From a virus (taxonomy: Duplodnaviria; Caudoviricetes): a stretch of DNA of 64,000 nucleotides. This document shows, piece by piece, positions 12,832 to 45,065 of the stretch (position 1 is the first letter of the stretch; each line of letters begins with the position of its first letter). Below the pieces are notes generated by a model, which did not search any database, was not told the origin of the DNA, and saw only the letters and a program-made list of their open reading frames with translations. Location: positions 6,190 to 70,189 of IMG/VR virus record IMGVR_UViG_3300025570_000011. One strand, given 5' to 3'. Made by a program: the position numbers and the translations under genes.

Positions 12832-12835
12832 AAAG

Positions 12836-13658: not shown

Positions 13659-13660
13659 TA

Positions 13661-13689: not shown

Positions 13690-13715
13690 ATTATTAATAA
13701 CAAAGTTAACCATAT

Positions 13716-14585: not shown

Positions 14586-14595
14586 TATAACAACT

Positions 14596-15057: not shown

Positions 15058-15058
15058 T

Positions 15059-15316
15059 ATGACATATGAATATACATGTTTAAGCTGTGAAGAACGCTGG
15101 GATGCTCGTTATCCTGTAGATGATAGAGATATCCCTTTAAGCGAACCTTGCCCAAAATGCGGAGTTGAAGGACAGGTTAAAAGAGTTCCAACCGCGGTTC
15201 GTGTTTCATATGAAGGTTTTCAAAGCCCTATTACAAGAGCTGGTGGAGAATGGAATGACGTGCTTAAATCTATTAAAAAGGGAGCAGGTAAAAAATCCAC
15301 TATTGAAACTAAATAA
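15059..15316 (+). CDS. FmdB-like zinc-ribbon regulatory protein
   Basis: TYEYTCLSC...CPKCG, W.DVLKSIKK; start moved to ATG 15059. Confidence 0.7.
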   Translation: MTYEYTCLSCEERWDARYPVDDRDIPLSEPCPKCGVEGQVKRVPTAVRVSYEGFQSPITRAGGEWNDVLKSIKKGAGKKSTIETK

Positions 15317-16029
15317 TGTCGCTACGATCTTTATTATCAAAACCAATTAGAGGTACTACTTTTAATCATTTGCCTACTTCAATTGGTTATGACGATTTGG
15401 TTTGCGAAACTAAAACATCTGGTAGAAAATATATAACTCCAGAAGGCACGGCATATCCAAGTATTACAACCGTTCTCGGTTCCTTAAGTAAAGAAGGAAT
15501 CGAAGCTTGGAAGAAACGAGTAGGCGAAGAAGAAGCTAATCGAATTTGTCAACATGCTTGCACTCGAGGAACTGCAATGCATGAAGCTATTGAGCAATAT
15601 CTTAATAACGAAGAAGATTGGTTTGCGCCAAATGAAATGCCAAACGTTAAAGCATTGTTTAATGCGGTTCGTCCAGTTCTTGATGAAAGAGTAACTAATA
15701 TATATTTACAGGAAGGCGCTCTTTATTCTGATCATTTAAAACTTGCGGGTCGTGTTGATTGTATCGCTGAGTTTGATGGCAAGCTTTCAATCATTGATTT
15801 TAAAACCGCGAGGCAAGCTAAAAAGAAAGAATATATTACTAGTTACTTCATGCAAGCATCTGCTTACGCTATTATGTTTGAAGAACGAACCGGAATCCCC
15901 GTAACACAAACAGTTATTCTAATGGCAGTTGATGACTCGCCCACACCAATCGTGTTTAAAGAAAAACGCGATAACTATACAAAACAATTAATTGAAACTA
16001 TACAAAACTATTATGATACAACCCGATAA
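15316..16029 (+). CDS. PD-(D/E)xK exonuclease (Cas4/lambda-exonuclease-like)
   Basis: YPSITTVL, RGTAMH, AGRVDCI, IIDFKT, YFMQASAY. Confidence 0.85.
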   Translation: MSLRSLLSKPIRGTTFNHLPTSIGYDDLVCETKTSGRKYITPEGTAYPSITTVLGSLSKEGIEAWKKRVGEEEANRICQHACTRGTAMHEAIEQYLNNEEDWFAPNEMPNVKALFNAVRPVLDERVTNIYLQEGALYSDHLKLAGRVDCIAEFDGKLSIIDFKTARQAKKKEYITSYFMQASAYAIMFEERTGIPVTQTVILMAVDDSPTPIVFKEKRDNYTKQLIETIQNYYDTTR

Positions 16030-16678
16030 CAATAAAAGAAATGAGAGTGAGCCGTCGTTAAAAGATATGATGGTCCAAAGACGCAACGATCCATTTGTTA
16101 CTGACTATGGTACAATTTCTGATTTTTATATTTCATCTCAGATCGGACCAGCCTCAGATTATATTGATTGGTTTCAACGAATTCGTGCAGCACGTGAATC
16201 TGATATTATTCGCTTTCATATTAATTGCCCAGGTGGGGATTTGTTTACAACGATTCAATTTATGCAAGTTCTTTCAGAGACTAAAGCAACAGTTGTTATG
16301 TGTGTTGAAGGCGCATGTATGTCAGCTGCGACTCTTCTATTTTTAATGGGTGATGAGTTTACAGTAACCGATCATAGTGTGTTTCTTTTCCATAACTATT
16401 CAGGTGGAGTTGTTGGAAAGGGCGCAGAAATTTATCACGGCGTAATGCATGAAAGAAAGTGGACTGAGAAACTACTAAGGCACGCATATGAAGGGTTTCT
16501 AACTACAAATGAAATTTCACAGCTTGTCGAAGATAAAGATGTTTGGATGGATGCCGAAACTGTTATTGCTAGGTTAAAAGAAAAAGAAACAATGGGCGAA
16601 GTTAAGCCTATTAAGACTAAAAAGAAAACTACTAAAAAGAAAACCACTAAAAGAAAAACTATTAAAAAGAAATCATAA
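16013..16678 (+). CDS. ClpP-like serine protease with Lys-rich tail
   Basis: INCPGG, CMSAAT (Ser), FLFHN (His), KDVWM (Asp); start moved to ATG 16013. Confidence 0.8.
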   Translation: MIQPDNNKRNESEPSLKDMMVQRRNDPFVTDYGTISDFYISSQIGPASDYIDWFQRIRAARESDIIRFHINCPGGDLFTTIQFMQVLSETKATVVMCVEGACMSAATLLFLMGDEFTVTDHSVFLFHNYSGGVVGKGAEIYHGVMHERKWTEKLLRHAYEGFLTTNEISQLVEDKDVWMDAETVIARLKEKETMGEVKPIKTKKKTTKKKTTKRKTIKKKS

Positions 16679-16944
16679 TGAAACAAACAAATATAAATCA
16701 ACCAGATTACCACTTTAAACGTCGCTTAGCTTTTGGTATATTAAATGAAGTTGGCGAGGAAGAGTTAGATGAATTTCAAAAAGAAATAATGATTGATGTC
16801 TCAGCTGAATATGAATTCATTAAAAATAAAACCAGTAGTTTATCAAAAATGCAACGCGATCAAATTGAACAAGCATATGTTGGTATTCAAAACACTTTAG
16901 CTAATAAAGCCAAAGCAGATATAAAATCAAAGGAAGAAGAGTAA
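16678..16944 (+). CDS. Hypothetical protein
   Basis: ORF track; coupled TAATG junctions. Confidence 0.6.
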   Translation: MKQTNINQPDYHFKRRLAFGILNEVGEEELDEFQKEIMIDVSAEYEFIKNKTSSLSKMQRDQIEQAYVGIQNTLANKAKADIKSKEEE

Positions 16945-17171
16945 TGAAAACTTTAATATTAGCAACAAGTAAATTTTGCGGTCCTTGTAAACTTTTAAAA
17001 AGTGAGTTTGAAAAGAAAGGTATCGATATAGAATATAAAGATTCTATTGAAGATGTAAACTTTTTTATTGAAAATAAAATTAAAAGTGTGCCGACATTAG
17101 TGTTAATAAACGGTGATAAAATTATTGGAGCTGAAGCTATTATGAAAAGTTTGAAGGAACATTATATTTGA
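16944..17171 (+). CDS. Thioredoxin/glutaredoxin-like protein
   Basis: CGPC active site and SVPTL cis-Pro motif. Confidence 0.85.
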   Translation: MKTLILATSKFCGPCKLLKSEFEKKGIDIEYKDSIEDVNFFIENKIKSVPTLVLINGDKIIGAEAIMKSLKEHYI

Positions 17172-17220
17172 TAAATAATATTATATCAAAGGTGACGTTG
17201 ATATATTAATTCACTTATAA

Positions 17221-17228
17221 TATAAATA
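17221..17228 (+). promoter_or_regulatory. Late promoter TATAAATA
   Basis: Immediately upstream of the structural gene at 17234. Confidence 0.7.
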
Positions 17229-17233
17229 ATACT

Positions 17234-20200
17234 ATGTCAACCAATATCGATTTGCATGCCGACAAAGGCAGCACTTTTTCTGTAGCCGTCAATGTTGAAA
17301 ACAAAGACGGCTCTGCTTTTGATTGTACCGGCTACAATGTTAGAGGACAAGTTAGGAAAACTTATAAATCCGAATATGGAGTAAACCTTTCATGTGATTA
17401 TATTGATCAAGCTGATGGTCTTATAGGTTTATCATTGACCTCAGAAGAAACCGCTGCTATGAAGGCCGGGCGGTATTATTATGATGCTGAGATTTTCAGT
17501 GACAGCGGCACAGTAATTAGAGTTTTAGAAGGTATCTTCGAAGTTAGCCCACGTGTTATTAGTGAGACTTCGGACTTGGGGCTGGGCGATAATACCGATC
17601 CAGTACCCGATTCGCATGCACTTAGGAGAGACAATCCTCATCAAGTTGCTCCCGATCAAATTGGACTAGGCAACGTAGATAATACAGCCGACGCAACCAA
17701 ACCCGTATCTGGACCAACTCAAACTGCTTTAAATTTAAAAGCAGATCAATCAACTACATATACTAAAACAGAAGTTGATACAAAAGTTACTAATTTAATT
17801 GATTCCGCGCCCGGTGCATTAAATACTCTTAATGAATTGGCTGAGGCTCTTGGCGATGACGAGAATTTTGCATCTACTGTCAACTCGGCTATTGCTAGTA
17901 ATTCAAGTGGAATAACAGCTTTAAACAGTCATGCCTTAAGTAAAACCAATCCGCATGATGTTTCTTTAGAACAGTTAATTGATGTTGATTTTCTTTCAAA
18001 TCCGCCGGCGCAGGGCCAAGGTATTCTCTATGATACAGATTCTCAAACATGGGTAGCTGCAGATATTGAGGGTGGTACAGGAACAGGTGGCCCAGTAGAA
18101 TTAACTGACCAAACTCATTCTATATATGTTTCTAAGACTGGTAATAATATTAACCAGGGTTTAAATATTGATGATGCAAAATTAACAATAACCAGTGCTG
18201 TGAATGCAGCGCAAACTTTAATAGCTGAACCAGGGTTTGTAGGAAGTGTAAGAATTGATGTTTTAGATGGTGGCAGATACTTTGAAGGAAATGTAAACAT
18301 TTCAGATAACATTCACGTGTTTGCGCCAACATCAACATTTATTGGAAACCTTACTATTGGTAATAATTCATCCTGTGTTATTGATACTCATTATGCCGAC
18401 ACAAACACACCTGGCTCCACTTTAGTTAATTTTGTTAATGCAACAAATTCTTACTATACTGCTAATACTTTAGATATGCGAGGTGAAGCCGGTTCACAAA
18501 CCGGTGGCATTGGTATTAGGTCTGAACAGAGTATTAACAGGTGTAAAGTAAATATTGGCGAGATTTATATTCCAACTGACGCAAAAGGATATCAAAGTGA
18601 TGAAGACGGTAATTTAACTTTTGGCAGAGTAAATCTTACAGGCGATAACTCATTCGCGTTTTACTTATTTGGCTTAGATGGAAATGCAAAAACTGATATA
18701 ACATGCGGGGAAATTATTGCATCTCCAATAGGCAGTAATACTATGGCCGTTTACTGTAATACTGATAATTCAAAAACAACTTTAATATGTGGCCAGATAG
18801 ATGTAGCTAAAGTTTATTCTATACCAAAGGCAACAGCTGAACTTTATATAATTTGCCCTAAAATTAGTGGTGATAGAACTCAAAATATTATTGGAGTTGT
18901 AAAAGAAATTTCAGATATTACTTTTGATTTAAAAGCAGATCAAACCGCGTTGACCGCACACGTTTCTGATGCAACCAATCCTCATACCGTAACTGCTACT
19001 CAAGTTGGTTTAGGCAACGTAGATAATACGGCCGATTCAACCAAACCCGTATCTGGACCAACACAAACTGCTTTAAGTTTAAAGGCAAATTCATCTGATT
19101 TATCTAATCACGTTTCTGATTCAACTAATCCTCATACCGTAACTGCTACTCAAGTTGGACTTGGTAACGTAGATAATACATCTGATATTAATAAACCAGT
19201 TAGTACAGCAACACAAACTGCTTTAAATTCAAAGGCCAATTCATCTGATTTATCTAATCACGTTTCTGATTCAACTAATCCTCATACCGTAACTGCTACT
19301 CAAGTTGGACTTGGTAACGTAGATAATACATCTGATGCAACCAAACCCGTATCTGTACCAACTCAAACTGCTTTAAATTTAAAGGCAAATTCATCTGATT
19401 TATCTAATCACGTTTCTGATTCAACTAATCCTCATACCGTAACTGCTACTCAAGTTGGTTTAGGAAATGTTAATAATACATCTGATATTAATAAACCAGT
19501 TAGTACAGCAACTCAAACTGCTTTAAATTTAAAAGCAGATCAATTAACTACATATACTAAAACAGAAGTTGATGCTGCTATAGGTGATGTGGGTGGAGGT
19601 GATTTAACCGCTGATGTTACATCTGATGTTAATGTTGGAAGTATTTCAACGGCTGATGTTGTTACAAGCGGCACGACTTTGCAAGAGTTTGTAGAGCAGT
19701 TATTGAAACAAACATATTTTCCAACTTTCGTAAACCCCTCTGCATCCCTTACTGATAATCTAGCCTCATCAGTAGAAGCTGGTACAACGGGAATTAATCT
19801 ATCGGCCGGCTTTAATGCAGGCGCAATTAACGGAGCTCTCACTGATAATATTTGGGATCCAGGCCTAAAGCAAGCAAACAGAGCCGGGGCAGCAAACTCA
19901 TACGAATTTAGTGGAACTTCTATAATTACAACAACACAGGGCGGATCTACTTTAAGTCAACCTGCTGTTGTAATTACAGATGGTGCTAATACTTTTAATG
20001 TTTCTATTGATTACGCAGAAGGCCCGCAACCACTTGACAGCGTGGGCAGCAATTATTTAAGCCCACTGCCAGCTGGAAGCGTGGTGAAGTCGCTAACCGT
20101 AAATGGAAGACGAAGAGCTTTTTATGGAACTAACCTCAGTGATAATACTAGTGCTGGTATAAGAGCTTTATCTAATAGTGTTTTAAACCCAGGGAATGGC

Positions 20201-20462: not shown

Positions 20463-23400
20463 ATGGCATCCATAGAATTTCCTCTTTCATTCACACGACA
20501 ATTTGTCGGGCCACTTGATACATCATCAGTATATGATTCATTAATAGATCTTCAAGACTATGTTAATAATAATCCTATTGCATATCTTGGTCAAGTTCTT
20601 AGTATAGCCAGTGGTGATGACGCTGGCATTTACATCGTTGGTGATGATGGCGCTGGCGGTTTTAATGTTGAAAAATATAGTAACGAAACAGATCTTAGTT
20701 CTAAAGCTAATTCATCTGATTTAACAACTCACATTAATGATTCAACTAATCCTCATAGCGTAACTGCTGCTCAAGTTGGTTTAGGTAGCGTAGAAAATAC
20801 CGCTTTATCAACCTGGCCTGGAAGCGGTGCAATTACTACAGTGGGAACACTTGGTAGTTTAACTGTATCTGGCCAAACTACATTTACTAACAATTTCCCG
20901 TTCTTACCTTCTGGTACTCCAACAGACTCAAATCATGCAGTACCTAAAAGTTACGTTGATACTTTATCAGAGGGTTTACATACACACGATCAAGTTCATG
21001 CTTTAGCGCTCAGTGAATTAAGCGGTTTAATTGATGGAAATGCTGGGCCTTCTACAGTGAGTTATGATAATGGAACCAATGGCGTTGGTGCCACACTTAC
21101 TATTGTTTCTGCCGGTGAATTTAACTTTTTATCACCAATCGTATGGGACAATGACCCTGATATTTTACTTACAAATAGAGTATTGGTTATTAATCAGGGA
21201 AATGCTTTTGAGAATGGAATATATGAGATAACATCATCCACCGTTTTAACTAGAGCGAGTGACTTTGATACCCCAGCAGAAATGGCAGGTGGTGATTTTG
21301 TATTTGTTACTCACGGCGATACTTACAATAATACTGGGTGGGTTCTTTCTGAACCTGTTAATACAGTTGGAACTGACGAAGTTCACTTCATTCAATTCTC
21401 TGGTGCAGGTTCATTTATTGGCGGGCATGGTATTACAATCAATGGTAACGAAGTTTCTATTCCAAAGAACGAATTAATAGAACTTCAAGATCTAACTATA
21501 TCCGGTGATTTTAAATTAATAAGCGATCCATTACCACCGGCAAATTATATATTAACAACTGATGCCGCTGGTATTGGTACATGGCAAGAACCGTTTCAAT
21601 CGACTCTTAATTCAGTCACAACAAACGGAGCAACTACCCTCAACGATATTAGTGTAGGCAGGATTGTAACATTACATCCAACTAATCCAGTCAACGACAA
21701 CATAGCCTCTGGTAATAGCAGTGCGTCTATTGGAGGAGTTGCAAATGTAGTAAGCGGGAATGGCTCAGTCAGTTATGGAGGTATCGGCCAAGAAGTTAAA
21801 GGGCTAGAGTCTTCGGCAATAGGTGGAATAAACACAATTCTAAACACTAGATACACCTCTGCTATTGGAGGAACTGGTAGTGTGGTTGGTTTAGGAACGT
21901 CGCTAATAAATGATATAGATGCACAAAATTCGATTGCATTAGGGGGCAACGGTAATATAATTGAATCCGCACAAGCAGCGGCAACAGTAGGTGGAGACAC
22001 AAATAGGATTTTAACAACTCATCACAGATCCGTTATTTTAGGAGGTCAAAACATTATAACAGATGCTGCGGATACTGCATACGTTCCCAATTTAAATGTC
22101 GGCGCAGGATTCAAAATGCCAACAGGCGCAATTGATACCTACGTGCTGACCACTGATGCATTTGGTGTGGGCACATGGCAAGAAGCGGCGGGAGGCGCTG
22201 TATCGGATTTAGAGTATTCAGGTGATTGGGATAGTGCCACGAACCCCGCTTCTGCTACTACGGCACCAAGTAAAAATGCTGTATATGATAAGATTGAATT
22301 ATTAGTAGCTGCTAGCACAGGTACAACAGATTTAAGTATTGGTAATGTAACTGCGGCTTCTTTAGATATACAATCTAACACAGGAAGCAATGCGACAATT
22401 CCAGCAGCAACAACATTATCTGCTGGATTATTAACAAACGCTCAATTTGATAAGTTGGACAACATTACTGTAACAAGTCCGATTAATCTTGATACCTTAA
22501 CATCTAACATACAATCAAATTTATCCTATACATCAAGTGCAACAGACGGAGTTATAACAAATAGTGATGGAAGCGGTTTTATAATTCCTGCGGCAACATC
22601 AGTAGCTGACACTAACATCGCTGGATTATTAACTCCAACTCAATTTGATAAATTAGATTTAATTAGTATTGTTACTGATCCGGTTGATCTTAATGCTTTA
22701 TCGAGCGATCTTAATACTTTATCGGGCGATCTTACTACTTTATCAACCGGCGTTTCAACAATTACGGGGCGGGTTGATACTTTAGAAACAGACGTTAGTG
22801 CAATAACATCTAACGTATCGACAGATTTAGGTATTGGTACTCATAATGATATATCATTACAGATAACGAGTAGCGATGGAGACAATGCGACAATTCCTTT
22901 AGCAACAGCAACATCACCTGGCACTAACCTTGCTGGATTATTAAGCCCAACGCAATTTGATAAGTTGGACAACATTACAGTTGCATCGCCCGTTAATCTT
23001 GATACCTTATCATCCACGGTTGGCGGAATAACATCTAACATATCGACAGATTTAGGTATTGGTACTCATAATGCAACATCTTTACAGATAACGAGTAGCG
23101 ATGGAAACAATGTAACACTTCCTGCAGCGGATACCAACCTTGCTGGATTATTAACGAACGCTCAATTTGATAAGTTGGGTAACATTACAGTTGCATCGCC
23201 AGTTAATCTTGATACCTTATCATCCACCGTTGATGGAATAACATCTAACATACAATCAAATTTATCCTATACATCAAGTGCAACAGACGGAGTTATAACA
23301 AATAGTGATGGAAGCGGTTTTATAATTCCTTTAGCAACAGCAGTGGAGGATACCAACATTGCTGGATTATTAAGCCCAACTCAATTTAATAAATTAAATT

Positions 23401-26351
23401 TAATTAGTATTGTTACTGATTCGGTTGATCTTAATGCTTTATCAACCACCGTTGATGGAATAACATCTAACATATCAACAGATTTAGGTATTGGTACTCA
23501 TAATGCAACATCTTTACAAATAACAAGCAGCGATGGAAACGACGTAACACTTCCTGCAGCAACGGCGTCAACTGGCACTAACCTTGCTGGATTATTAAGC
23601 CCAACTCAATTTGATAAATTAGATTTAATTAGTGTAACAAACACAATTGACCTTGATAACATTGTTGGGTCTGGTGACATAACAACAGATGATGCATGGC
23701 TAGATCCTGGAGACTTGATTGTTGGCTCTGGAATAAGCACGGCAACAATATTACCCAGAGGAAACGCAAATTATCTATATACGACAGATGCTGGAGATGT
23801 AGAATGGAGGTCGGCTATAAATGGAATTGGTAAGAATGGCACAGTTCCATTTTCGTCCCGTAGCAGTATTAACCTCATAGAAGGAACTAACATAAGCCTA
23901 GGATTTGCCGATAATCCTCTTGCAGATAGTGTAGATGTTACTATATCTGCTACTGGAGGAGGAGTTACAGATTTAGGTATTGGTACTCATAATGATGTAT
24001 CTTTACAAATAACAAGCAGCGATGGAAATGATGCGACACTTCCTTTAGCAACAGCGGCAACCGGTACTAACCTCGCTGGATTATTAAGCCCAACACAATT
24101 TGATAAGTTGGGCAACATTACTGTAACAGGTCCGATTGACCTTGACAATCTCCCAACCGGTAGCGGTGATATGTTAAAGGCTGATTATGACCCAAATAAT
24201 ACAGCTGAAGATATCTATGATATTCGGTGGATGGTAGAGCACACAGACCCCTTGGCAACACCCAATAGAATTTTTACTAAATTAGAAAGAGACAAAGTTA
24301 ATAATCTTTGGGTTGGAATTAATGAATTGGCCGCCACCGTAGCGCCAGTTGTTACTAATGACTCATCCCAAGGTTATTCGGTTGGTTCACTTTGGATAGA
24401 CATCACTTCTGGAGAAGTATATAGGTGCGTTGATAATACCGTTGGAGCCGCGGTATGGGCCGAAACTTCACTATCAGGGCTAGCGCCAGTTGCTACTAGT
24501 GGCAGTGCTACTGACTTAACTGTTGGAACTCTTTCAATTGATAGGATTGGTGATTTATCAATAACAAGCGGTAAGCTAGATGGTACTATTACTACTTCGT
24601 TAGAAAAAGCCGATACCGCATTACAACTGGCGTCTATAGGAATTAATGTCCAAGGGTGGTCTTCGGTATTATCTGCAACCACAGCTAGTTTCTTAGTAGC
24701 AGATAAAGATAAACTTGACAACATTATATTTGATGATCCTCGGGATCCTGATATTCCAATTAACCTTGATACATTATTAAGTAACGTTACAACGAACAAT
24801 AGTAAAGTATCTGCTGATGGTAGTGTAACAACGCATTCTGATATTAACGATGCGGGTTCTGGTAGTATCATTACTTTAAATGAAAGAGAGAAACTTTCAT
24901 TAATCGCGTTTAATGCGGGACAAACTGCTCCTGATGATACTATAAATTTAACTGATTTAGCATCAGCCGTTGCTGTTAATACGACAAAAGTATCTAATAT
25001 ACCATCAAATTTATCCTATACATCAAGTGCAATACAAGGCGTTATAGTTAATTCTGATGGAAACGATGCTGTAATTCCTTTAGCAACAGCGTCAACTGGC
25101 ACTAACATCGCTGGATTATTAACTCCAACTCAATTTGATAAATTAGGTAACATTACAATAAATCAGGCCGTTGATCTAGACGATCTAGAGACTAGGGTTA
25201 ATAATATCGATGCTTCCGTTGTTCTAAAAGGAATTTGGGATCCTAATAGTGGAAGTTTCCCAGCAAGTACCTTAGCAGGATTTAGTTACATCGTTGAAGC
25301 TGATGGAACAGTTGATAATATAACATTCAATGTTAATGACAGACTTATAGCATTAGTTGATGCTGCTTCAACTACTACTTATAGTCCTGATTGGTATAAA
25401 GCTGACTATACAGACCAAGTTTTATCGGTTAATAGTTTAACTGGAACCGTTGTTTTAAATACAGATAATATAAGTGATGCCGGCACCAATAAGTATGTAA
25501 CTGCTGATGATGTTACTAAGTTGTTCAACATTACTGTAACAAGTCCGATTAACCTTGATACATTATTAAGTAACGTTACAGTGAACAATGATAAAGTTTC
25601 TAACGTATCGACAGATTTATCCTATACACCAAGTGCAATACAAGGCGTTATAGTTAGTTCTGATGGAAACAATGCTATAATTCCTGCGGCGGATACCAGC
25701 AATGCTGGATTATTAAGCCCAGCTCAATTTGATAAGTTGGGTAACATTACAGTTGCATCGCCCGTTAATCTTAACGATGTAATAGCAGCCCAAATAATTA
25801 ACAATTCAAAGGAAGGAAACGCTACACACACTGGAGAAGTTACTGGCAATCTTGATCTGACGCTGCAGCCTACGGCGATAAGTAATAGAGGCACAGTGAC
25901 TGCATTAGCTAATAATGACTTTATTTTGATTGGTGATACAGATGATAATAGCAGTCTTAAGAAAACAACCGCTCAATCTATTGCAGATTTGGCAACTCAA
26001 ACTCCTGGTTTAAATACAGATGTTCAAACTATAACTTCTAGTGCAAATGCTGTTTCCTTTGATACTTCTAACGGGTGTAATGCTAGAATTATATTAACAG
26101 AAGATGTTTTATCGCTAGCAATAACTAAAGGCGGCGGAGCTTTAGATAATGGAGATACTGGAATTATATTCATAAAGCAAAATAACACAGGTGGCCACAC
26201 ATTTGCAGTTTCCACTCCTTCTACAATTAGAGTATATTCTGGTGACTTGGCCAAGATCCCAGATATAACGATAAATAGTGTTGGCTCGGCTACTATCGGG
26301 TATGCATTTGATAGCGGCGAATTACATTTATATGTAAGTGAAACAACTTAA
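20463..26351 (+). CDS. Very large tail-fibre/structural protein (1962 aa)
   Basis: Mosaic of fibre modules; many AGLL(S/T)P.QFDKL repeats; ENGIY...LTRASDFD module; Gly/Asn beta-helix-like stretch. Confidence 0.8.
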   Translation: MASIEFPLSFTRQFVGPLDTSSVYDSLIDLQDYVNNNPIAYLGQVLSIASGDDAGIYIVGDDGAGGFNVEKYSNETDLSSKANSSDLTTHINDSTNPHSVTAAQVGLGSVENTALSTWPGSGAITTVGTLGSLTVSGQTTFTNNFPFLPSGTPTDSNHAVPKSYVDTLSEGLHTHDQVHALALSELSGLIDGNAGPSTVSYDNGTNGVGATLTIVSAGEFNFLSPIVWDNDPDILLTNRVLVINQGNAFENGIYEITSSTVLTRASDFDTPAEMAGGDFVFVTHGDTYNNTGWVLSEPVNTVGTDEVHFIQFSGAGSFIGGHGITINGNEVSIPKNELIELQDLTISGDFKLISDPLPPANYILTTDAAGIGTWQEPFQSTLNSVTTNGATTLNDISVGRIVTLHPTNPVNDNIASGNSSASIGGVANVVSGNGSVSYGGIGQEVKGLESSAIGGINTILNTRYTSAIGGTGSVVGLGTSLINDIDAQNSIALGGNGNIIESAQAAATVGGDTNRILTTHHRSVILGGQNIITDAADTAYVPNLNVGAGFKMPTGAIDTYVLTTDAFGVGTWQEAAGGAVSDLEYSGDWDSATNPASATTAPSKNAVYDKIELLVAASTGTTDLSIGNVTAASLDIQSNTGSNATIPAATTLSAGLLTNAQFDKLDNITVTSPINLDTLTSNIQSNLSYTSSATDGVITNSDGSGFIIPAATSVADTNIAGLLTPTQFDKLDLISIVTDPVDLNALSSDLNTLSGDLTTLSTGVSTITGRVDTLETDVSAITSNVSTDLGIGTHNDISLQITSSDGDNATIPLATATSPGTNLAGLLSPTQFDKLDNITVASPVNLDTLSSTVGGITSNISTDLGIGTHNATSLQITSSDGNNVTLPAADTNLAGLLTNAQFDKLGNITVASPVNLDTLSSTVDGITSNIQSNLSYTSSATDGVITNSDGSGFIIPLATAVEDTNIAGLLSPTQFNKLNLISIVTDSVDLNALSTTVDGITSNISTDLGIGTHNATSLQITSSDGNDVTLPAATASTGTNLAGLLSPTQFDKLDLISVTNTIDLDNIVGSGDITTDDAWLDPGDLIVGSGISTATILPRGNANYLYTTDAGDVEWRSAINGIGKNGTVPFSSRSSINLIEGTNISLGFADNPLADSVDVTISATGGGVTDLGIGTHNDVSLQITSSDGNDATLPLATAATGTNLAGLLSPTQFDKLGNITVTGPIDLDNLPTGSGDMLKADYDPNNTAEDIYDIRWMVEHTDPLATPNRIFTKLERDKVNNLWVGINELAATVAPVVTNDSSQGYSVGSLWIDITSGEVYRCVDNTVGAAVWAETSLSGLAPVATSGSATDLTVGTLSIDRIGDLSITSGKLDGTITTSLEKADTALQLASIGINVQGWSSVLSATTASFLVADKDKLDNIIFDDPRDPDIPINLDTLLSNVTTNNSKVSADGSVTTHSDINDAGSGSIITLNEREKLSLIAFNAGQTAPDDTINLTDLASAVAVNTTKVSNIPSNLSYTSSAIQGVIVNSDGNDAVIPLATASTGTNIAGLLTPTQFDKLGNITINQAVDLDDLETRVNNIDASVVLKGIWDPNSGSFPASTLAGFSYIVEADGTVDNITFNVNDRLIALVDAASTTTYSPDWYKADYTDQVLSVNSLTGTVVLNTDNISDAGTNKYVTADDVTKLFNITVTSPINLDTLLSNVTVNNDKVSNVSTDLSYTPSAIQGVIVSSDGNNAIIPAADTSNAGLLSPAQFDKLGNITVASPVNLNDVIAAQIINNSKEGNATHTGEVTGNLDLTLQPTAISNRGTVTALANNDFILIGDTDDNSSLKKTTAQSIADLATQTPGLNTDVQTITSSANAVSFDTSNGCNARIILTEDVLSLAITKGGGALDNGDTGIIFIKQNNTGGHTFAVSTPSTIRVYSGDLAKIPDITINSVGSATIGYAFDSGELHLYVSETT
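22320..25780 (+). repeat. Dispersed in-frame repeats (..SSDGN.ATIP.AT...NLAGLLSPTQFDKL..I.V..PV.LD)
   Basis: About nine degenerate copies visible in DNA (GCTGGATTATTAA...CAATTTGATAA) and protein. Confidence 0.85.
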
Positions 26352-26872: not shown

Positions 26873-29800
26873 ATGAGTGTAAATTTTCCATTAGAATTAA
26901 TTGGAGTAGGTGACGCGCCGTCTTCATCTGCTGAGACGGTAATAAGAAGAATAGATATTGGTACTAAGTTCGAGGATCTCCCCATTACCGTTGATGGTCT
27001 AGGGAACACTATAACTAACCCGCAGGAATATTGGTATAGATGCGGTGGTGGCTCTACTCAAGCGGGCAATAGTATATGGTATGTTAATACAGGGGGCTCG
27101 CAAGTTTATGAAGGCAAAACCACTGCGTTCACTCCTGGTAATATACCTAGTTATGTTCCAGCCGTGGTCCAACAAACCGAGAGATATAGACAATCCGGTA
27201 CCAACCTTGAATATACAATTCCAAACCTTGCATCAGAATCGCCCCTGCCTAGTGGAACATATAGAGTGAATCTTATTTTTAGTGATAACTATAGAAACTT
27301 TAGAGTTGTAAATATTTTTATTAATAATATTTTTGTAGGTGAGCTTAGAGAGGAAAGCACCGATGGAGCGACATTTGTAGGTGAATTTCAATCATATGAT
27401 GTTGAAGTATCAACTGGTGTCATAGAGATACGGTTTGAAAAAGTGGAAGAAAACCCCAAAATCCATGGAATTGAAATCATAAAGTTAGGTACTACTGATG
27501 AGACTGCTTTTGTTACAATAGGAAATATTAATAACACTAATGATAATACCGGCTTCGGTTCAGTTCCATATGTATATGAAATTGCAAAATATGAAACGTT
27601 TAGAAGAAAGATAGATGATTATAATGCAGATCCTGTAAATGTAAATAGACAAATAACTGCATCAGGCGATCCTAGATTTACAGATGATCTGCATCCTGCA
27701 TATGGTGTATTTGGAAACAGAGCTTTTCGCTTTGTTAACTGGTTAAATGAAAGAGAAGGCTACCAGCCAGCATATAAAATTTTAGGTGGCGGTTCAAATG
27801 ATCCTATTTCTCTTTGGAGTAGTGCTGAAGCGTGGCAACTCGGAGGTGAAAACAGATTTAGACATAAGGCCGCAAAATATTTCTTACCATCTTATAATGA
27901 ATGGTATAAAGCAGCTTATTATGATCCTATTAATACTGTTTATTACGATTATGCAACTGGAAGTGACACTCCTCCAATTTCTACACCTGGTGGTAAAGTT
28001 GAAGGAACCGCGGTGTATAATCAAGACATCACTACTGGTCTTGCGATTGTAACTAATGCGGGTGGGGAAAGTCCTTATGGTATAGTTGGAGGAAACGGCA
28101 ATGTTAGTGAGTTTTTAGAAACGGCGGTAGGGCTGGTTAATGATGACCCTTTGGAAAATAGAATATCTGTTGGTGGTACTTATTCTGATACTACTATTCA
28201 ACCAGCTACGGCGACTCCTCCTGGAGCTTCAACCACTTTATTTACCGTTGATGATGCTATTACATTTAGACTCGCTCGTAATCCTAATGCATTTTTCTAT
28301 ACATCATATTTTGAAGAGTTCGTACCTATTAACAATCCTGGTAACGATGCAGATACTGTAATTGGTGGTTATGGTGATGTTAGTTATACATATCAAATTG
28401 CAAAATATAGTGTTGCTGAAGAACAGGTTGCTGCTTACAATACAGCCAACCCTTCATTACAAATATCAATAGATTCTCGTGGTGAAAGTAAACCAGCTAC
28501 AAGTGTATCATGGAATGGAGCGGCTCGTTATGTTAACTGGCTTAATACAAGAGAAGGGTTTCAACCCGCTTATAAATTTGATACTGGTATAGCTAATGAC
28601 AATATATCTTTATGGGATGTGGCCGATTCGTGGACAGCAGGTGGTGAGAATCGTTATCGTCATAAAGATGCAAAATACTTCTTACCGAACGAAAATGAGT
28701 GGTATAAAGCTGCTTATTATGATCCTATTAATACTGTTTATTATGATTATCCAACAGGTAGCGATAGTCCTCCAACACCAACGGCTGGTAGTACAATAAC
28801 AGGAGAGGCTGTTTATAATCAAACGTCTGGTCAAGGTCCTGCTAATGTTACTAACGCTGGCGGTCTTAGTCCGTATGGTACGATGGGACAGGGTGGTAAT
28901 ACATACGAATGGATTGAGACCGCGTTAGATGGTACTAATGATTCGGCTGTTGAGTCGCGGGTGCGCCGCGGCGGCGACTGGGACGACAGCTCCCCCGTCT
29001 TGCAGTCGTCCTTCCGCAGCTTCGGCAGCCCGGTCGGCGAGAACAACAGCGTCGGTTTTCGTGTCGCCTGTAACGTGAATGCTAATCCTATATCAGCCTC
29101 GCTCATCACCATTGGCGATGCTAGTAATAATCCCGATGGTACCACCACCTTTGGATCGGTTCCATATACATATCAGATCGGTAAGTATGAAGTTAATGAA
29201 AAAGAAATTGATGAGTTTAATAAAATAAATGAAAACGCCATTTTTAAGTTTGATGATGGTGAAGATAAACCCGCTAGAGAATTAACATGGAACTCAGCAG
29301 CACGATTTATTAATTGGCTTAATTCTAAAGAAGGTTATTTTGAAGCTTACTCCTTTGCGTCAGCAGGCCAATTCAGTGATGAGTGGCCGCTTGATCAATC
29401 TTGGGATCTTGGTGGAGAAGTAAATCGTCTAAGACATAAACATGCAAAGTATTTCCTACCAAGCGAAGATGAATGGTATAAAGCGGCTTACTGGGATCAG
29501 ACCTTATCTAAGTATTGGTTATATTCAACAGGAAGCGATACTCCTCCAGCAGATGTTCCAGGCGGGGTAGATCCAAATACTGCTGTTTATAACCAAGCCG
29601 CCACGGCTTCAGTTATTCGGGCGGGTGGGGAAAGTCCTTATGGTATAGTTGGAGGAAACGGTAATGTGAAGGAGTGGCTTGAAGGTGCGCCAGCTGGAAA
29701 CACAACTCAAAAGTGGGCTGCTGGTGAATCCTATGAAGCGACGACGTTAGGAACAAAAAATTCTTTTCCAAATTTATTCCTGAATAACTCAGGAGATGAT

Positions 29801-31579
29801 AAGATAGGTTTACGTTGCGCCGCTAACCCCGATACGAAAACGCCAACAATTCTTTTTGATCAATTTGGAGATGAACTCGTTAAGTATAATGGTGATATAC
29901 CACCCGATTATAATGATGGTAATTTTTTATACCCGCCCGTGAGTATTCTTATAGGAGAATCTGCTTCTGAAATTGGCGGACGTGCATTTAGAAATAATAC
30001 TAATTTAGAATCTTTAAATTTAGGGCTGAGTGTTCTCGAGATTCGAGGCAATGCATTTGATGGTTGTGTCAACCTAACAGGACCTCTTAATATTCCAGAT
30101 AGTATAAATGCTATACGAGATCTAGCTTTTCGAAATTGCTCTTCTTTACAAAGTTTAGATCTTGGTAACAACATTACCTTTATTGGTGATAATGCATTTG
30201 ATGGTTGTGTCAACCTAACAGGACCTCTTAATATTCCAGATACTGTATCAGTGATTGATCCCAGGGCATTTCTTAATTGTTCTGGAATTTCTTCTTTAAA
30301 AATCTCGAATAATATGTCTATACTTAAAATTGGCACCTTTCAAAATTGTTCTGGAATACTGGGGGAAGTGATCATCCCAGATATTGTAACCGAGATAGGT
30401 AATAGCGTTTTTAGGAATTGTTCTAATGTAACATCGTTTAATATCCCGACCGGCTTGGAATCTATTGGCAGTTCTGCTTTTTCCGGATGCTCTTCATGGG
30501 TTGGTCCATTAGTCCTTCCAGATACTTTAACTACTTTTGGAACATTTACTTTTATTGGCTGTTCGGGATTAACTAGTTTTAATTTTCCAAATAACCCAAA
30601 CTTTACCAGCATACCATCTGGTTTATTTAATAATTGTCCTAATCTAGCTGGTCCACTAATCATTCCAGATTCGGTGACTTCGATCGGAACCGCTCCTTTT
30701 CGTGATTGCAATAAATTAACAGGCCCACTAATCATTCCAGATAAAGTGACTTCTATTGGTGATAGTGCATTTATTGATTGCTCTGGCTTAGAATCTCTTA
30801 CGCTTGGTTCTGGACTTACTAATATTCGATCTGGAACATTTAACCGCTGCAGCGGAATGATTGGAACTCTTAGTATACCCGCCACTATAACTGAAATTGG
30901 CGGTAATGCATTTAGAGCTTGCTCTTTTGATAGAATTGAATACTACGCCGTTGTAAAACCGAGCGAAGACGGCAATGTGTTTTCTTCAAATAATACAACA
31001 GAAATACACGTTCCTAGCGAAGCTCCTTTTAATGCTAGACCAAATGCATGGGTGGGAGGAGAAGTTTGGAATGGATTAACAGTAGTAGCCGATTTAGACA
31101 ATTCTTTAAATACTACACTATATGATGTTAATAATTTAGCTTTAATATCTATTGATATAGATATACCAAATAATTGGAATGAAAATGAAACTCTATTTGC
31201 GGCCGATACTATTAAGATTGGAAGTTCTTGTGCAGCAATAGGAGACCAGGCCTTTATTAATAATACATCTTTAACAGATATTGCATATGGTATTATTCCA
31301 GCAACCGTTCAAACGATTGGCAGTGGTTCTTTTCAAAATTGTACTTTCTTAGCCGGTTCATTAACTATATCAAGTGGCATTACATCTATTGGAGATTTTG
31401 CTTTTCAAAATTGCTCTTCTATTACTTCAGTTAACATTGAAGCGACAACCGCGCCAATAATTGGTATTAATACATTTTCTGGTATGACCTCAGTATTTCC
31501 AGCAGAGATTCATGTTCCAACTGGCGCAACAGGGTATGCTGCATCATATAACGGACTAACAGTAGTTGCAGACTTATAA
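26873..31579 (+). CDS. Multidomain adhesin / receptor-binding protein: malectin-like + 3x FGE-sulfatase (C-lectin fold) + BspA-type LRR
   Basis: TERY...G.Y.V.L.F...NPKIHGIEI (malectin); three FVNWLN...YFLPS..EWYKAAY...GNVxEW...GFR domains; IPDSVTSIG..AF..C LRR_5 repeats; late promoter 26847-26854. Confidence 0.8.
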   Translation: MSVNFPLELIGVGDAPSSSAETVIRRIDIGTKFEDLPITVDGLGNTITNPQEYWYRCGGGSTQAGNSIWYVNTGGSQVYEGKTTAFTPGNIPSYVPAVVQQTERYRQSGTNLEYTIPNLASESPLPSGTYRVNLIFSDNYRNFRVVNIFINNIFVGELREESTDGATFVGEFQSYDVEVSTGVIEIRFEKVEENPKIHGIEIIKLGTTDETAFVTIGNINNTNDNTGFGSVPYVYEIAKYETFRRKIDDYNADPVNVNRQITASGDPRFTDDLHPAYGVFGNRAFRFVNWLNEREGYQPAYKILGGGSNDPISLWSSAEAWQLGGENRFRHKAAKYFLPSYNEWYKAAYYDPINTVYYDYATGSDTPPISTPGGKVEGTAVYNQDITTGLAIVTNAGGESPYGIVGGNGNVSEFLETAVGLVNDDPLENRISVGGTYSDTTIQPATATPPGASTTLFTVDDAITFRLARNPNAFFYTSYFEEFVPINNPGNDADTVIGGYGDVSYTYQIAKYSVAEEQVAAYNTANPSLQISIDSRGESKPATSVSWNGAARYVNWLNTREGFQPAYKFDTGIANDNISLWDVADSWTAGGENRYRHKDAKYFLPNENEWYKAAYYDPINTVYYDYPTGSDSPPTPTAGSTITGEAVYNQTSGQGPANVTNAGGLSPYGTMGQGGNTYEWIETALDGTNDSAVESRVRRGGDWDDSSPVLQSSFRSFGSPVGENNSVGFRVACNVNANPISASLITIGDASNNPDGTTTFGSVPYTYQIGKYEVNEKEIDEFNKINENAIFKFDDGEDKPARELTWNSAARFINWLNSKEGYFEAYSFASAGQFSDEWPLDQSWDLGGEVNRLRHKHAKYFLPSEDEWYKAAYWDQTLSKYWLYSTGSDTPPADVPGGVDPNTAVYNQAATASVIRAGGESPYGIVGGNGNVKEWLEGAPAGNTTQKWAAGESYEATTLGTKNSFPNLFLNNSGDDKIGLRCAANPDTKTPTILFDQFGDELVKYNGDIPPDYNDGNFLYPPVSILIGESASEIGGRAFRNNTNLESLNLGLSVLEIRGNAFDGCVNLTGPLNIPDSINAIRDLAFRNCSSLQSLDLGNNITFIGDNAFDGCVNLTGPLNIPDTVSVIDPRAFLNCSGISSLKISNNMSILKIGTFQNCSGILGEVIIPDIVTEIGNSVFRNCSNVTSFNIPTGLESIGSSAFSGCSSWVGPLVLPDTLTTFGTFTFIGCSGLTSFNFPNNPNFTSIPSGLFNNCPNLAGPLIIPDSVTSIGTAPFRDCNKLTGPLIIPDKVTSIGDSAFIDCSGLESLTLGSGLTNIRSGTFNRCSGMIGTLSIPATITEIGGNAFRACSFDRIEYYAVVKPSEDGNVFSSNNTTEIHVPSEAPFNARPNAWVGGEVWNGLTVVADLDNSLNTTLYDVNNLALISIDIDIPNNWNENETLFAADTIKIGSSCAAIGDQAFINNTSLTDIAYGIIPATVQTIGSGSFQNCTFLAGSLTISSGITSIGDFAFQNCSSITSVNIEATTAPIIGINTFSGMTSVFPAEIHVPTGATGYAASYNGLTVVADL
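28952..29068 (+). other. DGR-type variable region candidate VR1
   Basis: 82/117 nt GC (70%) inside an AT-rich gene; variable codons are NNC; encodes RVRRGGDWDD...NNSVGFRVA. Confidence 0.7.
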
Positions 31580-41861: not shown

Positions 41862-44800
41862 ATGAGTAATAGAGTATTTAAAGCAGGGCCTGCTGTTGAT
41901 GGCGTATCCGAGCTCAACTTGGGTTATGACACTCTAACGCCTACTATTGTTTTTAATGGAACCGATCATCCTACGATTTATAATGGAGACATTCCTGCCG
42001 ATGCGCATAATGAAGGTTCTGCTGGGCCAAATTTCGTAACAAGTTTAATCCTTGGTACTTCTTGTACATCTATAGGCGATAACGCATTTAAATGGTGTAA
42101 TAACTTAGCCATGACGAATTTAATTATTCCTGATGGCGTTACATCTATTGGCGTAAATGCATTTACTGACAGCCCTTTAATAACAGGAAACATTTTTATT
42201 CCTGATAGCGTTACATCTATTGGTACGGGTTCATTCAACCAATTGGGAATAAATGGATCTATAACTTTAAGTAATAATATAGAAAGTATCGGAAATTTGA
42301 CTTTTTATGGAAATAATACTATAACAGGAGATCTTATTATTCCTGATAGTGTTAAAAGTATAGGTTCCTTTGCTTTTCTAAACACAGGAACTGCTCAATC
42401 AAAATTACAAAATGAATTAATTTTAGGAAATTCTTTAGAATCTTTGGGTGCCTCTGCATTTTCCGGTAGAGGTTGGTCAGGTAATTTAGATATACCTGAC
42501 ACACTTACTCCTTCCAGTGGTAACTGTTTTGGCGATAATTATTTTTCATCTATTAATATTAATATACCAGCATCTGGTTGGGCTACCTTTTCCAACTTAA
42601 CTTCTCTTAAATATGTTAATGTTGGCACCGATCATATTTCTGGATATGACGCTGCATGGAGAACTACTAACGGTATAGCAGCATCAGTTGAAATAAGAGA
42701 TTTAAATAAATTTCATATTACTTGGAATGACAGCAGTGGTGGATTTCCAAAGACCGTGCTAGCACTATTTAATAATGAAGACTTAACCGCTGAAAGTGTT
42801 CGATATGAATGGTTATGGGATAGCACCGGCCAAACCGTTACAGAAGGTTCCACTTTTCTTTCTCCGAAATTTTTAGGAGTAGGAGATGTTAAATCAGAAC
42901 ATTGGCTTCAAACTACGATTAGCGACCAAACTCCAAGATATACTGGCTTAACTACTATTGATTTAAATGGTTCTGGACCACTTGTTAAAAGTTTAGATAT
43001 AAGTCAAGTTCGATGGCCACTTAAAAGAATAATATTAGAAGATGTTTCTAATTGGATTCCTGAAGAACCGCTTATGAAAGTCAAGATAATAGACGGCTTT
43101 AAAAACTTTACTATTACCAATAACCCTTCTTTAACAGAATTAAAATTTGATTTAAAAGGTGGCGCTGATATTAGGGACAACTCTTCTGCAGATAATGGCG
43201 TAATAAAAATAAGTGGGATGAGCGCTTTAACTGATATATCCTTTTCAAACCCAGTAGAACATTGGGAAGATAGGAGCTATGATGTTTTAGAGGTTAACAC
43301 TTTTGAAATATCAAATTGTAATGCACTAACTGGAACATTAGATTTACGGCAAATTACAGTAGATGTAAATCCTGCAGATACGCCTACGGCTGCACCGCCC
43401 ACACCCCTGACAGAATTTGTAACTATTAGAGATCCAGGTAACACAACTGATACTACCAGCTTTGGAGATGTATCATACGCGTATCAGATTGGTAAGTATG
43501 CAATAAGAGAAACGGACATCGATGCTTATAATGCGGACCCAGCAAATGCTGGTACATTACAGATTACACTAACCGAGCGTGGTGATGATAAGCCCGCTAC
43601 AAATGTATCTTGGAATGAAGCTGCTCGTTATGTTAACTGGCTTAATACAAGAGAAGGCGAGCAGGGCGCATATAAATTTACTACAAACGGAGTTAATGAT
43701 GATATTGCTCTTTGGAGTAGTGCTGAAGCTTGGCAAACCGACGGCGAAAATCTATTCAGACATAAAGATGCAAAGTATTTCCTACCAAGTGAAGATGAGT
43801 GGTATAAGGCAGCTTATTATAAGAGTGGAGGTACTAATGCTGGTTATTGGTTATATCCAACAGGAAGTGATACTGATCCAGTACCAACAGCTGGTAGTAC
43901 AATAACAGGAGAGGCTGTTTATAATCAAACGACTGGTCAAGGTCCTGCTGATGTTGATAACGCTGGCGGTCTTAGTCCGTATGGTACGATGGGTCAAGGA
44001 GGCAATACATATGAGTGGTGTGAGAGTGCTTTTGATGGTACGAATGATTCTACTACTGAGTCGCGGGCGGCCCGCGGCGGCGACTGGGACGACGGCGCAG
44101 TTTCAGTTCCGCCCGCCCAAAACTTGCAGTCGGGCGTCCGCGCACAATATCCCCCGGGCGGCGAGAGCACCTCCATCGGTTTTCGTGTCGCAAAAGTATA
44201 TGACAGATTTACTTCAGAGTTTGGAATGAATCTTACCGATAATACTGGAATAACTTACCTGGCTTTAGGCAGCGGATATAATACAAAGCACACTTTAAAC
44301 TTAAGAGGATGTACTAACCTTACTGGGTTTTATTCTTTTGATCCAAAGACGCTTACTATATCAGGAGTAAATGATTGGTCTGATTGTAATTTTTCCGGAG
44401 AAAATCTTTTAGATATTTCCCGATTTGTTAAAGGAGATCCTGAAAAAGAAGCTTATCAAAACCGAGCTAAATTACACGGGAACTCTGTGTGGGACACCAC
44501 CGGATTAACAGAAGAAACTATAGAAAACGCGCTGGCTAACAACTTTATCTTTGCGGGCGCCACATATGTTATTTATAGAATTAATTGTGGAGGTCCATTA
44601 GTAACATCCATTGATAATTATATGGATTGGGAAGCGGATAATACAATTAATACAACATATCTAACAGCTGCCTCTAATAACATATTCACTCCCGGTGGTA
44701 CGCCGACTTATACTTTTGATTCTTCAGTACCAGCATCAACGCCTGAAGAGGTTATTCATACTGAACGATATGATGAAATGACCTATAATTTTCCAGTATC

Positions 44801-45065
44801 AAATGGTGAGTATGAAGTCAGATTATATTTTGCTGAATTATTCAATGGGATTACTAGCGCAGGGCAACGCTTGTTTCAAGTTAAAATTAATGGCGTGACC
44901 AAATTACTTGATTTTGATAGATTTGCTGAGGCGGGCAGTATATTATATAAAGGAATAACAAAATCCTTTAATATCTCTACTAATAACGAATTATTAACAA
45001 TTGAATTTATTAATAATGTAGAAAATTGTGCAATTAATGCTATTGAAATCATTGATTTAAACTAA
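41862..45065 (+). CDS. Multidomain adhesin: BspA-LRR + FGE-sulfatase + malectin-like
   Basis: LRR_5 repeats at N-terminus; FGE domain ~43410-44195; YRINCGG...TERY...GEYEVRLYFAE...GQRLF...INAIEI malectin at C-terminus. Confidence 0.8.
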   Translation: MSNRVFKAGPAVDGVSELNLGYDTLTPTIVFNGTDHPTIYNGDIPADAHNEGSAGPNFVTSLILGTSCTSIGDNAFKWCNNLAMTNLIIPDGVTSIGVNAFTDSPLITGNIFIPDSVTSIGTGSFNQLGINGSITLSNNIESIGNLTFYGNNTITGDLIIPDSVKSIGSFAFLNTGTAQSKLQNELILGNSLESLGASAFSGRGWSGNLDIPDTLTPSSGNCFGDNYFSSININIPASGWATFSNLTSLKYVNVGTDHISGYDAAWRTTNGIAASVEIRDLNKFHITWNDSSGGFPKTVLALFNNEDLTAESVRYEWLWDSTGQTVTEGSTFLSPKFLGVGDVKSEHWLQTTISDQTPRYTGLTTIDLNGSGPLVKSLDISQVRWPLKRIILEDVSNWIPEEPLMKVKIIDGFKNFTITNNPSLTELKFDLKGGADIRDNSSADNGVIKISGMSALTDISFSNPVEHWEDRSYDVLEVNTFEISNCNALTGTLDLRQITVDVNPADTPTAAPPTPLTEFVTIRDPGNTTDTTSFGDVSYAYQIGKYAIRETDIDAYNADPANAGTLQITLTERGDDKPATNVSWNEAARYVNWLNTREGEQGAYKFTTNGVNDDIALWSSAEAWQTDGENLFRHKDAKYFLPSEDEWYKAAYYKSGGTNAGYWLYPTGSDTDPVPTAGSTITGEAVYNQTTGQGPADVDNAGGLSPYGTMGQGGNTYEWCESAFDGTNDSTTESRAARGGDWDDGAVSVPPAQNLQSGVRAQYPPGGESTSIGFRVAKVYDRFTSEFGMNLTDNTGITYLALGSGYNTKHTLNLRGCTNLTGFYSFDPKTLTISGVNDWSDCNFSGENLLDISRFVKGDPEKEAYQNRAKLHGNSVWDTTGLTEETIENALANNFIFAGATYVIYRINCGGPLVTSIDNYMDWEADNTINTTYLTAASNNIFTPGGTPTYTFDSSVPASTPEEVIHTERYDEMTYNFPVSNGEYEVRLYFAELFNGITSAGQRLFQVKINGVTKLLDFDRFAEAGSILYKGITKSFNISTNNELLTIEFINNVENCAINAIEIIDLN
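44058..44192 (+). other. DGR-type variable region candidate VR2
   Basis: GC-rich island sharing the invariant scaffold of VR1 (GAGTCGCGG...CGCGGCGGCGACTGGGACGAC...TTGCAGTCG...CCG...GAG...TCGGTTTTCGTGTCGC). Confidence 0.65.

Follow-up and report, generated by a model that had tools for sequence, protein, structure and literature searches.

The window analyzed here, 64,000 nt of a tailed virus (Caudoviricetes), carries a short GC-rich island inside an AT-rich gene for a 1568-amino-acid (aa) tail-module protein. It corresponds to positions 6190-70189 of the 70,189-bp IMG/VR record IMGVR_UViG_3300025570_000011 (G000). A preliminary description, made from the letters of the window alone, had interpreted the island as a variable region (VR) of a diversity-generating retroelement (DGR), that is, of an element that transfers a template repeat (TR) to its target with changes at adenines. 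The same description had seen no TR, no reverse transcriptase (RT) and no Avd in the 64 kb. The locus therefore raises the question of which element wrote the region and where the template of that element resides.

Comparison of the island with a bacterial template repeat

A template was found outside the phage, in a metagenome contig (L104) and in an Oceaniferula metagenome-assembled genome (MAG; locus L121). This is the outcome of the check that had been proposed, namely a search for a TR that differs only at adenines and lies next to an RT. In an ungapped comparison with the L104 template, 102 of the 124 positions of the variable region (VR-A, 28944-29067) match. The block contains 35 template adenines, at which 21 of the 22 mismatches are located; the sole mismatch elsewhere is position 28965. 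Homology to the template collapses on both flanks of 28944-29067, so that the GC island can be equated with the template-homology block, and its GC-rich composition is that of the bacterial template. Within the 102-nt core of VR-A (28966-29067), all 21 mismatches coincide with template adenines, of which there are 34, and the 68 other positions are unchanged (hypergeometric P = 2.9e-13). Counted by codon position, the mismatches of VR-A are distributed 10/12/0 over first, second and third positions. The translation of the L104 template is RGGNWNNNSNNLQSSNRNNNNPDNENNNIGFRVA, in agreement with the pattern that had been predicted for it (RGGNWNNN..NLQS.NRNNNNP.NENNNIGFRVA).

With a template located beside an RT, and with 21 adenine differences and one other difference over 124 nt, window 28944-29067 is almost certainly a variable region written by a DGR, as had been proposed from its composition.

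The GC-rich island within the tail-module protein gene

The island as first noted (28952-29068, plus strand) contains 82 G or C in 117 nt (70.1%), compared to 35.9% for the whole record. Its composition thus stood up to recounting, while its limits have to be moved, as the template-matching block begins 8 nt earlier and covers 28944-29067. Relative to 117-nt segments across the record (mean GC 0.359, standard deviation (SD) 0.065), the island lies ~5.2 SD above the mean, and its edges are sharp in a 100-nt GC profile. A GC content of ≥58% is reached by only two clusters in the 70-kb record, the island itself and 43982-44210 (maximum 72.6% at 44058).

The island is located in frame within the open reading frame (ORF) 26873-31579 and encodes ESRVRRGGDWDDSSPVLQSSFRSFGSPVGENNSVGFRVA. 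At the third codon position, 35 of the 38 counted island codons (92%) have G or C, compared to 346 of 1526 (22.7%) in the remainder of the gene; 26 of the 39 island codons end in C, as read from the sequence. According to Pfam, the protein contains LRR_5 repeats of the BspA type (4.7e-140) and of FGE-sulfatase (PF03781, 3e-27) in three stretches, the best of which covers residues 515-732; Malectin was matched below the threshold. VR-A corresponds to residues 694-732, at the end of the second FGE-sulfatase stretch, which bears out the earlier assignment of the island to the C-terminal segment of the second FGE/C-lectin domain. This domain also gave a weak PDB alignment to the C-terminal domain of EgtB. 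The segment concerned is therefore the C-terminal part of a C-type-lectin/FGE-sulfatase fold, as expected of a DGR target and as judged by the sequence-profile match.

The template belongs to a verrucomicrobial cassette

The metagenome contig L104 (2151 nt, 57% GC) contains a gene for bAvd, a gene for RT and the TR (Table 1). The RT is located beside the template and Avd beside the RT, which is the arrangement of a DGR. In NCBIfam, the best match of this RT is a group II intron RT, below the cut-off of that family. Relatives of the RT were found in the Oceaniferula MAG (90% aa identity), Verrucomicrobiaceae bacterium E54 (69%), Rubritalea profundi SAORIC-165 (67%), and a Verrucomicrobiales MAG (64%); the one remaining match, in a Candidatus Uhrbacteria MAG, is distant (36%). 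TR and/or VR copies are present in each of the four verrucomicrobial genomes with an RT relative, and the template core of L121 is identical to that of L104.

In L121, the gene order is a PEP-CTERM FGE-sulfatase target, bAvd, RT, TR, GNAT, UbiE, an aminotransferase I/II (read as hisC-like), MnmE, SulP, and LptF/G. The L104 contig aligns to L121 over 1941 nt (88.6%) and once more where the aminotransferase gene begins, and is syntenic with it up to that point, over the whole of its length. Since the cassette sits between the PEP-CTERM FGE target and housekeeping genes, its location is evidently the bacterial chromosome of an Oceaniferula-like marine Verrucomicrobiaceae and not a prophage. Cognate templates were found only in such chromosomal bAvd-RT-TR cassettes of Verrucomicrobiaceae with 52-58% GC. 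Among 151 sampled genomes of this family, template DNA is present in two, and the element is therefore sporadic.

The scans behind these results covered metagenome and viral contigs. When the metagenome contigs were searched with the two adenine-free VR ends separated by a gap, 52 loci were obtained: two templates, three chance matches in unrelated sequence (L069, L102, L107), and a remainder of VR-like loci. Searches of the viral contigs gave no template. An exact 22-nt stretch had no match there. The 16-nt 3' anchor matched 27 stretches, none of them a cognate template: four are copies of FGE genes in phages (the AT-rich form L040 and three VR alleles), two are loci of one unrelated provirus, and the others are chance matches. 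A 17-nt variant of the anchor matched four stretches, none a template, and a 16-nt anchor taken from the template of R. profundi matched five viral stretches, none a VR. A blastn search with window 28400-29400 gave no match in cultured phages, and when A was allowed as an alternative to each VR base, a search of the record of the window itself returned only self matches. We also considered the argument that the ratio of VRs to TRs in metagenomes would have revealed a phage template, and rejected it, because VRs in bacterial contexts also outnumber templates by more than 10:1.

Further DGR loci were encountered in these scans. One IMG/VR provirus record (G485; 58% GC, unrelated) contains a textbook DGR, in which a VR and an adenine-rich TR (L045/L046) are 1.8 kb apart with the RT between them. 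A freshwater sister family consists of the template L086 and ~20 VR loci among L072-L119 with a slightly different core; its VRs are mostly found in contexts of 51-59% GC, some of them on contigs of 27-137 kb.

Table 1 Coordinates of the variable regions, the genes that carry them, and the bacterial cassette. Positions refer to the window unless a contig is named.
Feature	Position	Strand	Basis
Variable region A (VR-A), 124-nt block homologous to the L104/L121 template repeat	28944..29067	+	Ungapped comparison with L104
GC island as first noted	28952..29068	+	GC profile
Second FGE-sulfatase (C-type-lectin-like) domain, C-terminal segment = VR-A	28415..29068	+	PF03781, residues 515-732
1568-aa multidomain tail-module protein gene (P0001)	26873..31579	+	ORF, Pfam; neighbours match PHROG tail-fibre families
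Second GC island (VR-B)	44058..44195	+	72.6% GC; terminates the FGE domain of the following large tail-module protein
1067-aa protein gene with VR-B (LRR_5, single FGE-sulfatase, Malectin)	41862..45065	+	ORF, Pfam
bAvd gene (P0003)	L104 106-567		NCBIfam DivGenRetAVD 81.2 bits (cut-off 80); Pfam bAvd 2.6e-14
RT gene	L104 516-1604		RVT_1 1.8e-23; YVDD motif in translation
Adenine-rich template repeat	L104 1654-1755		Matches VR-A core

Alleles of the variable region in related phages

A protein-guided scan of the viral contigs yielded 35 related loci, of which L003 and L004 have a GC island (71%) at the equivalent place. Over the whole gene (4711 nt), the window and L003 are 96.2% identical. Within the island they differ at codon positions 1 and 2 only, according to a reading by columns, and their 3' flanks are identical. 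For seven alleles with AT-rich flanks (flank GC ≤0.43) and 102-nt cores, those of the window, L003, L041, L073, L075, L113, and L120, comparison with the L104 template showed changes at 153 of 238 adenine sites and at 14 of 476 other sites. Alleles with other core lengths, namely L005 (99 nt), VR-B (120 nt), L077 (105 nt), and L090 (108 nt), were excluded from this ungapped count.

At one orthologous locus, at least three alleles are present that differ almost only at template adenines, as seen in assembled contigs. Among the Logan contigs at the locus of the window, X1 and X2 contain an exact copy of the window allele and X16 contains the L003 allele, while X11 holds three contigs in which differing VRs (agreement 0.82) are joined to an identical 3' flank. 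The 5' limit of the template-like tract also varies. The window and L088 have the 11 nt that lie upstream in the template itself, and the other alleles have phage sequence at this place, as expected from separate conversion events.

Several VR genes (L073, L090/L097, L100, L103, L113, L120) end in ...GFRVAAVPE-stop and thereby retain the start of the bacterial PEP-CTERM signal. Most of them are located on AT-rich contigs, and L100 and L103 have 55-56% GC. Such endings indicate that a bacterial DGR target once donated its 3' end to the genes concerned.

A second region in the next large tail-module gene

The second GC island of the record (VR-B) shares both ends and its 3' half with the template family of VR-A, but differs from it by an 18-nt insertion and by several changes at sites other than adenines. 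By our own reading, the 3' half has ~5 non-adenine differences from the template, most of which replace a third-position C by A or T. Third-position GC amounts to 33 of 46 codons (72%) in VR-B compared to 92% in VR-A. No cognate template of VR-B is present among the 52 metagenome loci, and in 401 genomes of the bacterial order only one partial match was obtained. VR-B may thus be an older, decaying region or the product of an unseen template.

At the orthologous locus of three related phages (window 44040-44200, L005:700-883, and L040:1850-2020, the last from the same record as L003), identical flanks enclose three unrelated fillings. The filling of the window has 73% GC and the 18-nt insertion, that of L005 is a VR-like tract of 38 codons, and that of L040 is AT-rich and ordinary-looking. 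From this comparison, it seems that an ordinary FGE domain has gained or lost a tract derived from the template.

The phage genome and the search for a cassette

Searches for RVT_1 (E ≤ 10), for bAvd, and for a template-like copy were all negative in the window and in the 6 kb of the record upstream of it, and the earlier statement that the 64 kb lack TR, RT, and Avd therefore holds for the whole record. RVT_1 is absent from all of 11 phage records (G000, G001-G005, G480-G484), and neither RT protein, nor bAvd, nor template DNA beyond the VR matches was detected in the five that were also searched for these (G000, G001, G003, G004, G005). As positive controls, the RTs of the textbook-DGR provirus and of the Oceaniferula MAG were both recovered with RVT_1.

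The relative G004 (107,577 bp) encodes a ligase that is 99% identical to that of the window, and it overlaps the record of the window at both ends (record positions 64654-68784 with G004 107561-102069, and 1-2739 with G004 2742-1). Together, G000 and G004 close a gapless circle of ~168 kb, a composite of two close relatives. G004 contributes a T4 core of Gp23, portal, terminase, PolB, UvsX/Y/W, gp32, RegA, clamp loader, baseplate, and sheath, and a Pfam search with its 83 ORFs of at least 130 aa matched neither an integrase nor an RT family. The closest cultured ligases are those of T4-type phages (Caulobacter Cr30, 40%; Sinorhizobium phiM12, 37%). The phage is a ~168-kb T4-like myovirus and, judging from these genes, apparently strictly lytic, in line with the impression gained from the window alone.

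A metagenome contig of 170,893 nt represents the phage type of L003. In an exhaustive pattern scan it contained one locus only, the VR (L092); a cognate template would be expected to match the pattern too, because both anchors are adenine-free. A template, an RT, and a target on one replicon were thus not found together in the phage, as covered by the composite genome and, for the 170,893-nt contig, by the pattern scan only.

Mobile endonuclease genes are present in this lineage: window 13248-13658 encodes a SegE-type GIY-YIG homing endonuclease, and the relative G004 encodes a TnsA-like endonuclease (L223:15573-16019). Such genes could be a source of size differences between strains.

Source of the variable region

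The preliminary description had left two sources open, a remote phage DGR or the DGR of a GC-rich host. The results favour the latter, as templates were found only in Verrucomicrobiaceae cassettes and none in phage. Because the phage DNA examined contains no RT, Avd, or template, we consider it probable that the variable tip of the phage protein is supplied by a cell-resident DGR, either through cDNA acting in trans or through recombination with variable regions of the host, rather than by a cassette of the phage or as a relic. The bacterium would in this case be the host of the phage, and transfer might be ongoing. The difference in GC content is no obstacle, since a T4-like phage of 36% GC on a host of ~52% GC is unremarkable, as T4 and E. 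coli illustrate. A cell-resident source implies that the sequence at window 28944-29067 would recently have given way to an adenine-mutagenised copy, made from a template identical to that of the Verrucomicrobiaceae cassette; the third-position GC content of VR-A, which contrasts with that of the rest of the gene, was counted in favour of such freshness. Mutagenised cDNA of the host element might enter replicating phage DNA, or the phage might recombine with host variable regions that are already diversified. If cDNA is the donor, uptake driven by homology through the short conserved ends would be favoured, because the phage regions have neither the hairpin nor the homology past the last codons that efficient homing of phage BPP-1 needs. 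The phage lineage encodes proteins of the UvsX, UvsY, gp32, and gp46/47-like types (seen in G004). A more specific proposal, which we put forward only tentatively and regard as somewhat doubtful, is that an infecting lytic T4-like phage uses the mutagenised cDNA of the DGR of its host, taken up through short adenine-free end homologies by phage UvsX/UvsY/gp32, with no need for an initiation of mutagenic homing (IMH) element or a hairpin. If this were true, a surface lectin of the host and the receptor-binding lectin of the phage would be diversified from one template, and the phage would gain a host-range mutator without encoding one, as a natural counterpart of a DGR combined with recombineering.

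A number of observations weigh against a cell-resident source. Window 1-20000 gave no DNA match to five DGR-bearing genomes, and hence no independent link between phage and bacterium. A search of the phage for a RecT-type protein was negative, and in an engineered system mutagenesis did not occur without an added annealing protein (preprint 10.1101/2025.03.24.644984). Part of the evidence speaks at the same time for a DGR cassette of the phage itself, recently captured from the host, GC-rich and near-identical to the bacterial one. Such a cassette would occupy an accessory island, in unseen strains or in an unseen stretch of the genome, and the VRs would be its remote targets in one genome. 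Targets that are not adjacent to their cassette are well documented within single genomes (PMC5758913). The closed genome is a composite, in which G004 lacks the VR-bearing module, and the VR-bearing records span only ~100 of the 168 kb. The contig of 170,893 nt, known from the pattern scan only, is ~2.8 kb longer than the estimate for the circle, an excess about as large as a cassette. Assembly of DGR cassettes is also poor, and RT relatives of at least 74% identity are all on contigs of ≤5 kb. Finally, an RT scan of the viral contigs matched eight stretches and reported one relative but returned no distinct locus; the six 8-mers of the query are absent from the phage loci recovered here and from the record of the window. 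However, a cassette in the phage is improbable in view of the RT being absent from all 11 phage records and TR and Avd from all five, the composite genome closing without a gap, and the 170,893-nt contig yielding the VR alone although a template should match both adenine-free anchors. In addition, a TR-specific 24-mer has no match in the viral contigs, and the sole marine-type template of the metagenomes (L104) is syntenic with the bacterial chromosome over its full length.

Other observations of this kind would fit relics, i.e. VRs that were written at one time by a phage DGR since lost, or that arrived within a gene fragment of a bacterial target, with alleles now spread by descent and recombination. 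At least four assemblies contain the L003 allele in identical form, and turnover is therefore not fast. The phage VRs have no downstream hairpin, and template homology stops at 29067 with the last codons; DNA folding placed no stem beside the VR in 29050-29130 (z-score 0.33) or in 44175-44255 (z-score 0.45), whereas the bacterial VR in L121 is followed after 3 nt by a hairpin with a 6-bp stem and a 4-nt loop. Window and L003 differ over a patch of ~600 nt (28500-29100, 71-89% identity) that extends beyond the VR itself. Window 28726-28990 and 43832-44096 form a direct repeat of 85% identity just upstream of both VRs, which joins the two FGE-domain genes. As the divergent patch is in part this 85% identical copy, ordinary recombination or gene conversion between FGE paralogues evidently also acts at the VR-A locus. 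The degraded appearance of VR-B, with its 18-nt insertion, C-to-A/T changes at third positions, and 72% instead of 92% third-position GC, and the ...GFRVAAVPE-stop ends on related AT-rich contigs, which point to past transfer of gene fragments, would likewise suit relics. We nevertheless regard relics as unlikely for VR-A, which shows zero third-position drift in a gene of 22.7% third-position GC and no difference from a living bacterial template at the 68 non-adenine core positions. The presence of at least three alleles at one orthologous locus, with differences almost only at template adenines, and the variable 5' limit of the template-like tract, as separate conversions would give, also argue against relics. 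A plain GC-rich recombination patch, or a chance island of composition with no retroelement involved, could account for the cassette missing from the window and for nothing else; set against the adenine-specific mismatches to a real template adjoining RT and Avd (P = 2.9e-13), its probability is practically negligible.

Relation to known systems

In Bordetella phage BPP-1, the DGR (mtd-avd-TR-brt) likewise mediates adenine-specific transfer to the C-terminal, C-type-lectin-fold segment of a phage tail receptor-binding protein, and Avd and RT adjoin the template. The whole cassette of BPP-1 is located in a temperate phage beside its target, and the VR ends the gene. The system described here differs in that the cassette is found in a bacterial chromosome, the phage is T4-like, and the VR lies within a 1568-aa protein, with neither a hairpin nor 3' homology beyond it. 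In BPP-1, IMH and a hairpin follow the VR, and this structure is required for efficient retrohoming (PMC3240598).

Remote targets of DGRs in Treponema and elsewhere (PMC5758913) resemble the present case in having the VR far from RT and template, and they were recognized by the same criterion of A-to-N changes only. Unlike these targets, which were screened for within genomes and share one genome with their template, the phage region has its template in a cell and its target in a virus. According to Wu et al. (PMC5758913), remote targets are unexpected for phage-associated DGRs, as they are not inherited with the phage, and avd, TR, and brt function from a plasmid.

An engineered counterpart is DGRec, in which bRT, Avd, and template borne by the cell, together with a single-strand annealing protein, diversified gpJ of lambda-vir over three lytic rounds (preprint 10.1101/2025.03.24.644984). 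As in the proposal made here, the DGR is expressed by the cell and diversifies a receptor-binding gene while a lytic phage infects, without an IMH at the target. DGRec needs CspRecT and a block of mismatch repair, whereas the natural phage has UvsX, UvsY, gp32, and gp46/47-like proteins and no RecT-type protein was found in it.

The verrucomicrobial PEP-CTERM FGE-type DGR targets (order target-bAvd-RT-TR) have the same template family, the same FGE-sulfatase fold, and the same variable segment of 39 codons. They are cell-surface proteins beside their own cassette and are followed by a hairpin, whereas the copy in the window belongs to one of three FGE domains in a phage tail protein.

DGRs are treated as self-contained elements whose template, RT, and target travel together, and surveys look beside the RT or in the same genome; the approach of a large metagenome survey misses remote targets, as stated by its authors (PMC8144416). 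Here, a viral variable region has its only known template in a cell. We found no description in the literature of a natural, host-encoded DGR template that matches a gene of a lytic phage, although one may still be in print. If the link is real, lytic phages can acquire receptor-binding diversity from a mutator that is not their own. Orphan VRs in viromes would then represent a new kind of link between host and virus, in which the match of VR and TR marks the host, and counts of hypervariable phage proteins based on RT-containing contigs would be too low. Cultured bacteria with the same type of cassette, Rubritalea profundi SAORIC-165 and Verrucomicrobiaceae bacterium E54, make the question accessible to experiment.

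Repeats in other genes of the window

Repeats of other kinds are present elsewhere in the window. Lysine/threonine-rich periodic repeats of 15 nt (K-K-K-T-T type) end two otherwise unrelated small genes, at 16597-16691 and 49229-49377. Long tandem and dispersed repeats (150-nt units, and units of 132-214 nt) are located at 17633-19573 and 22413-25826, in tail-fibre-like proteins of 1071 aa and 1962 aa.

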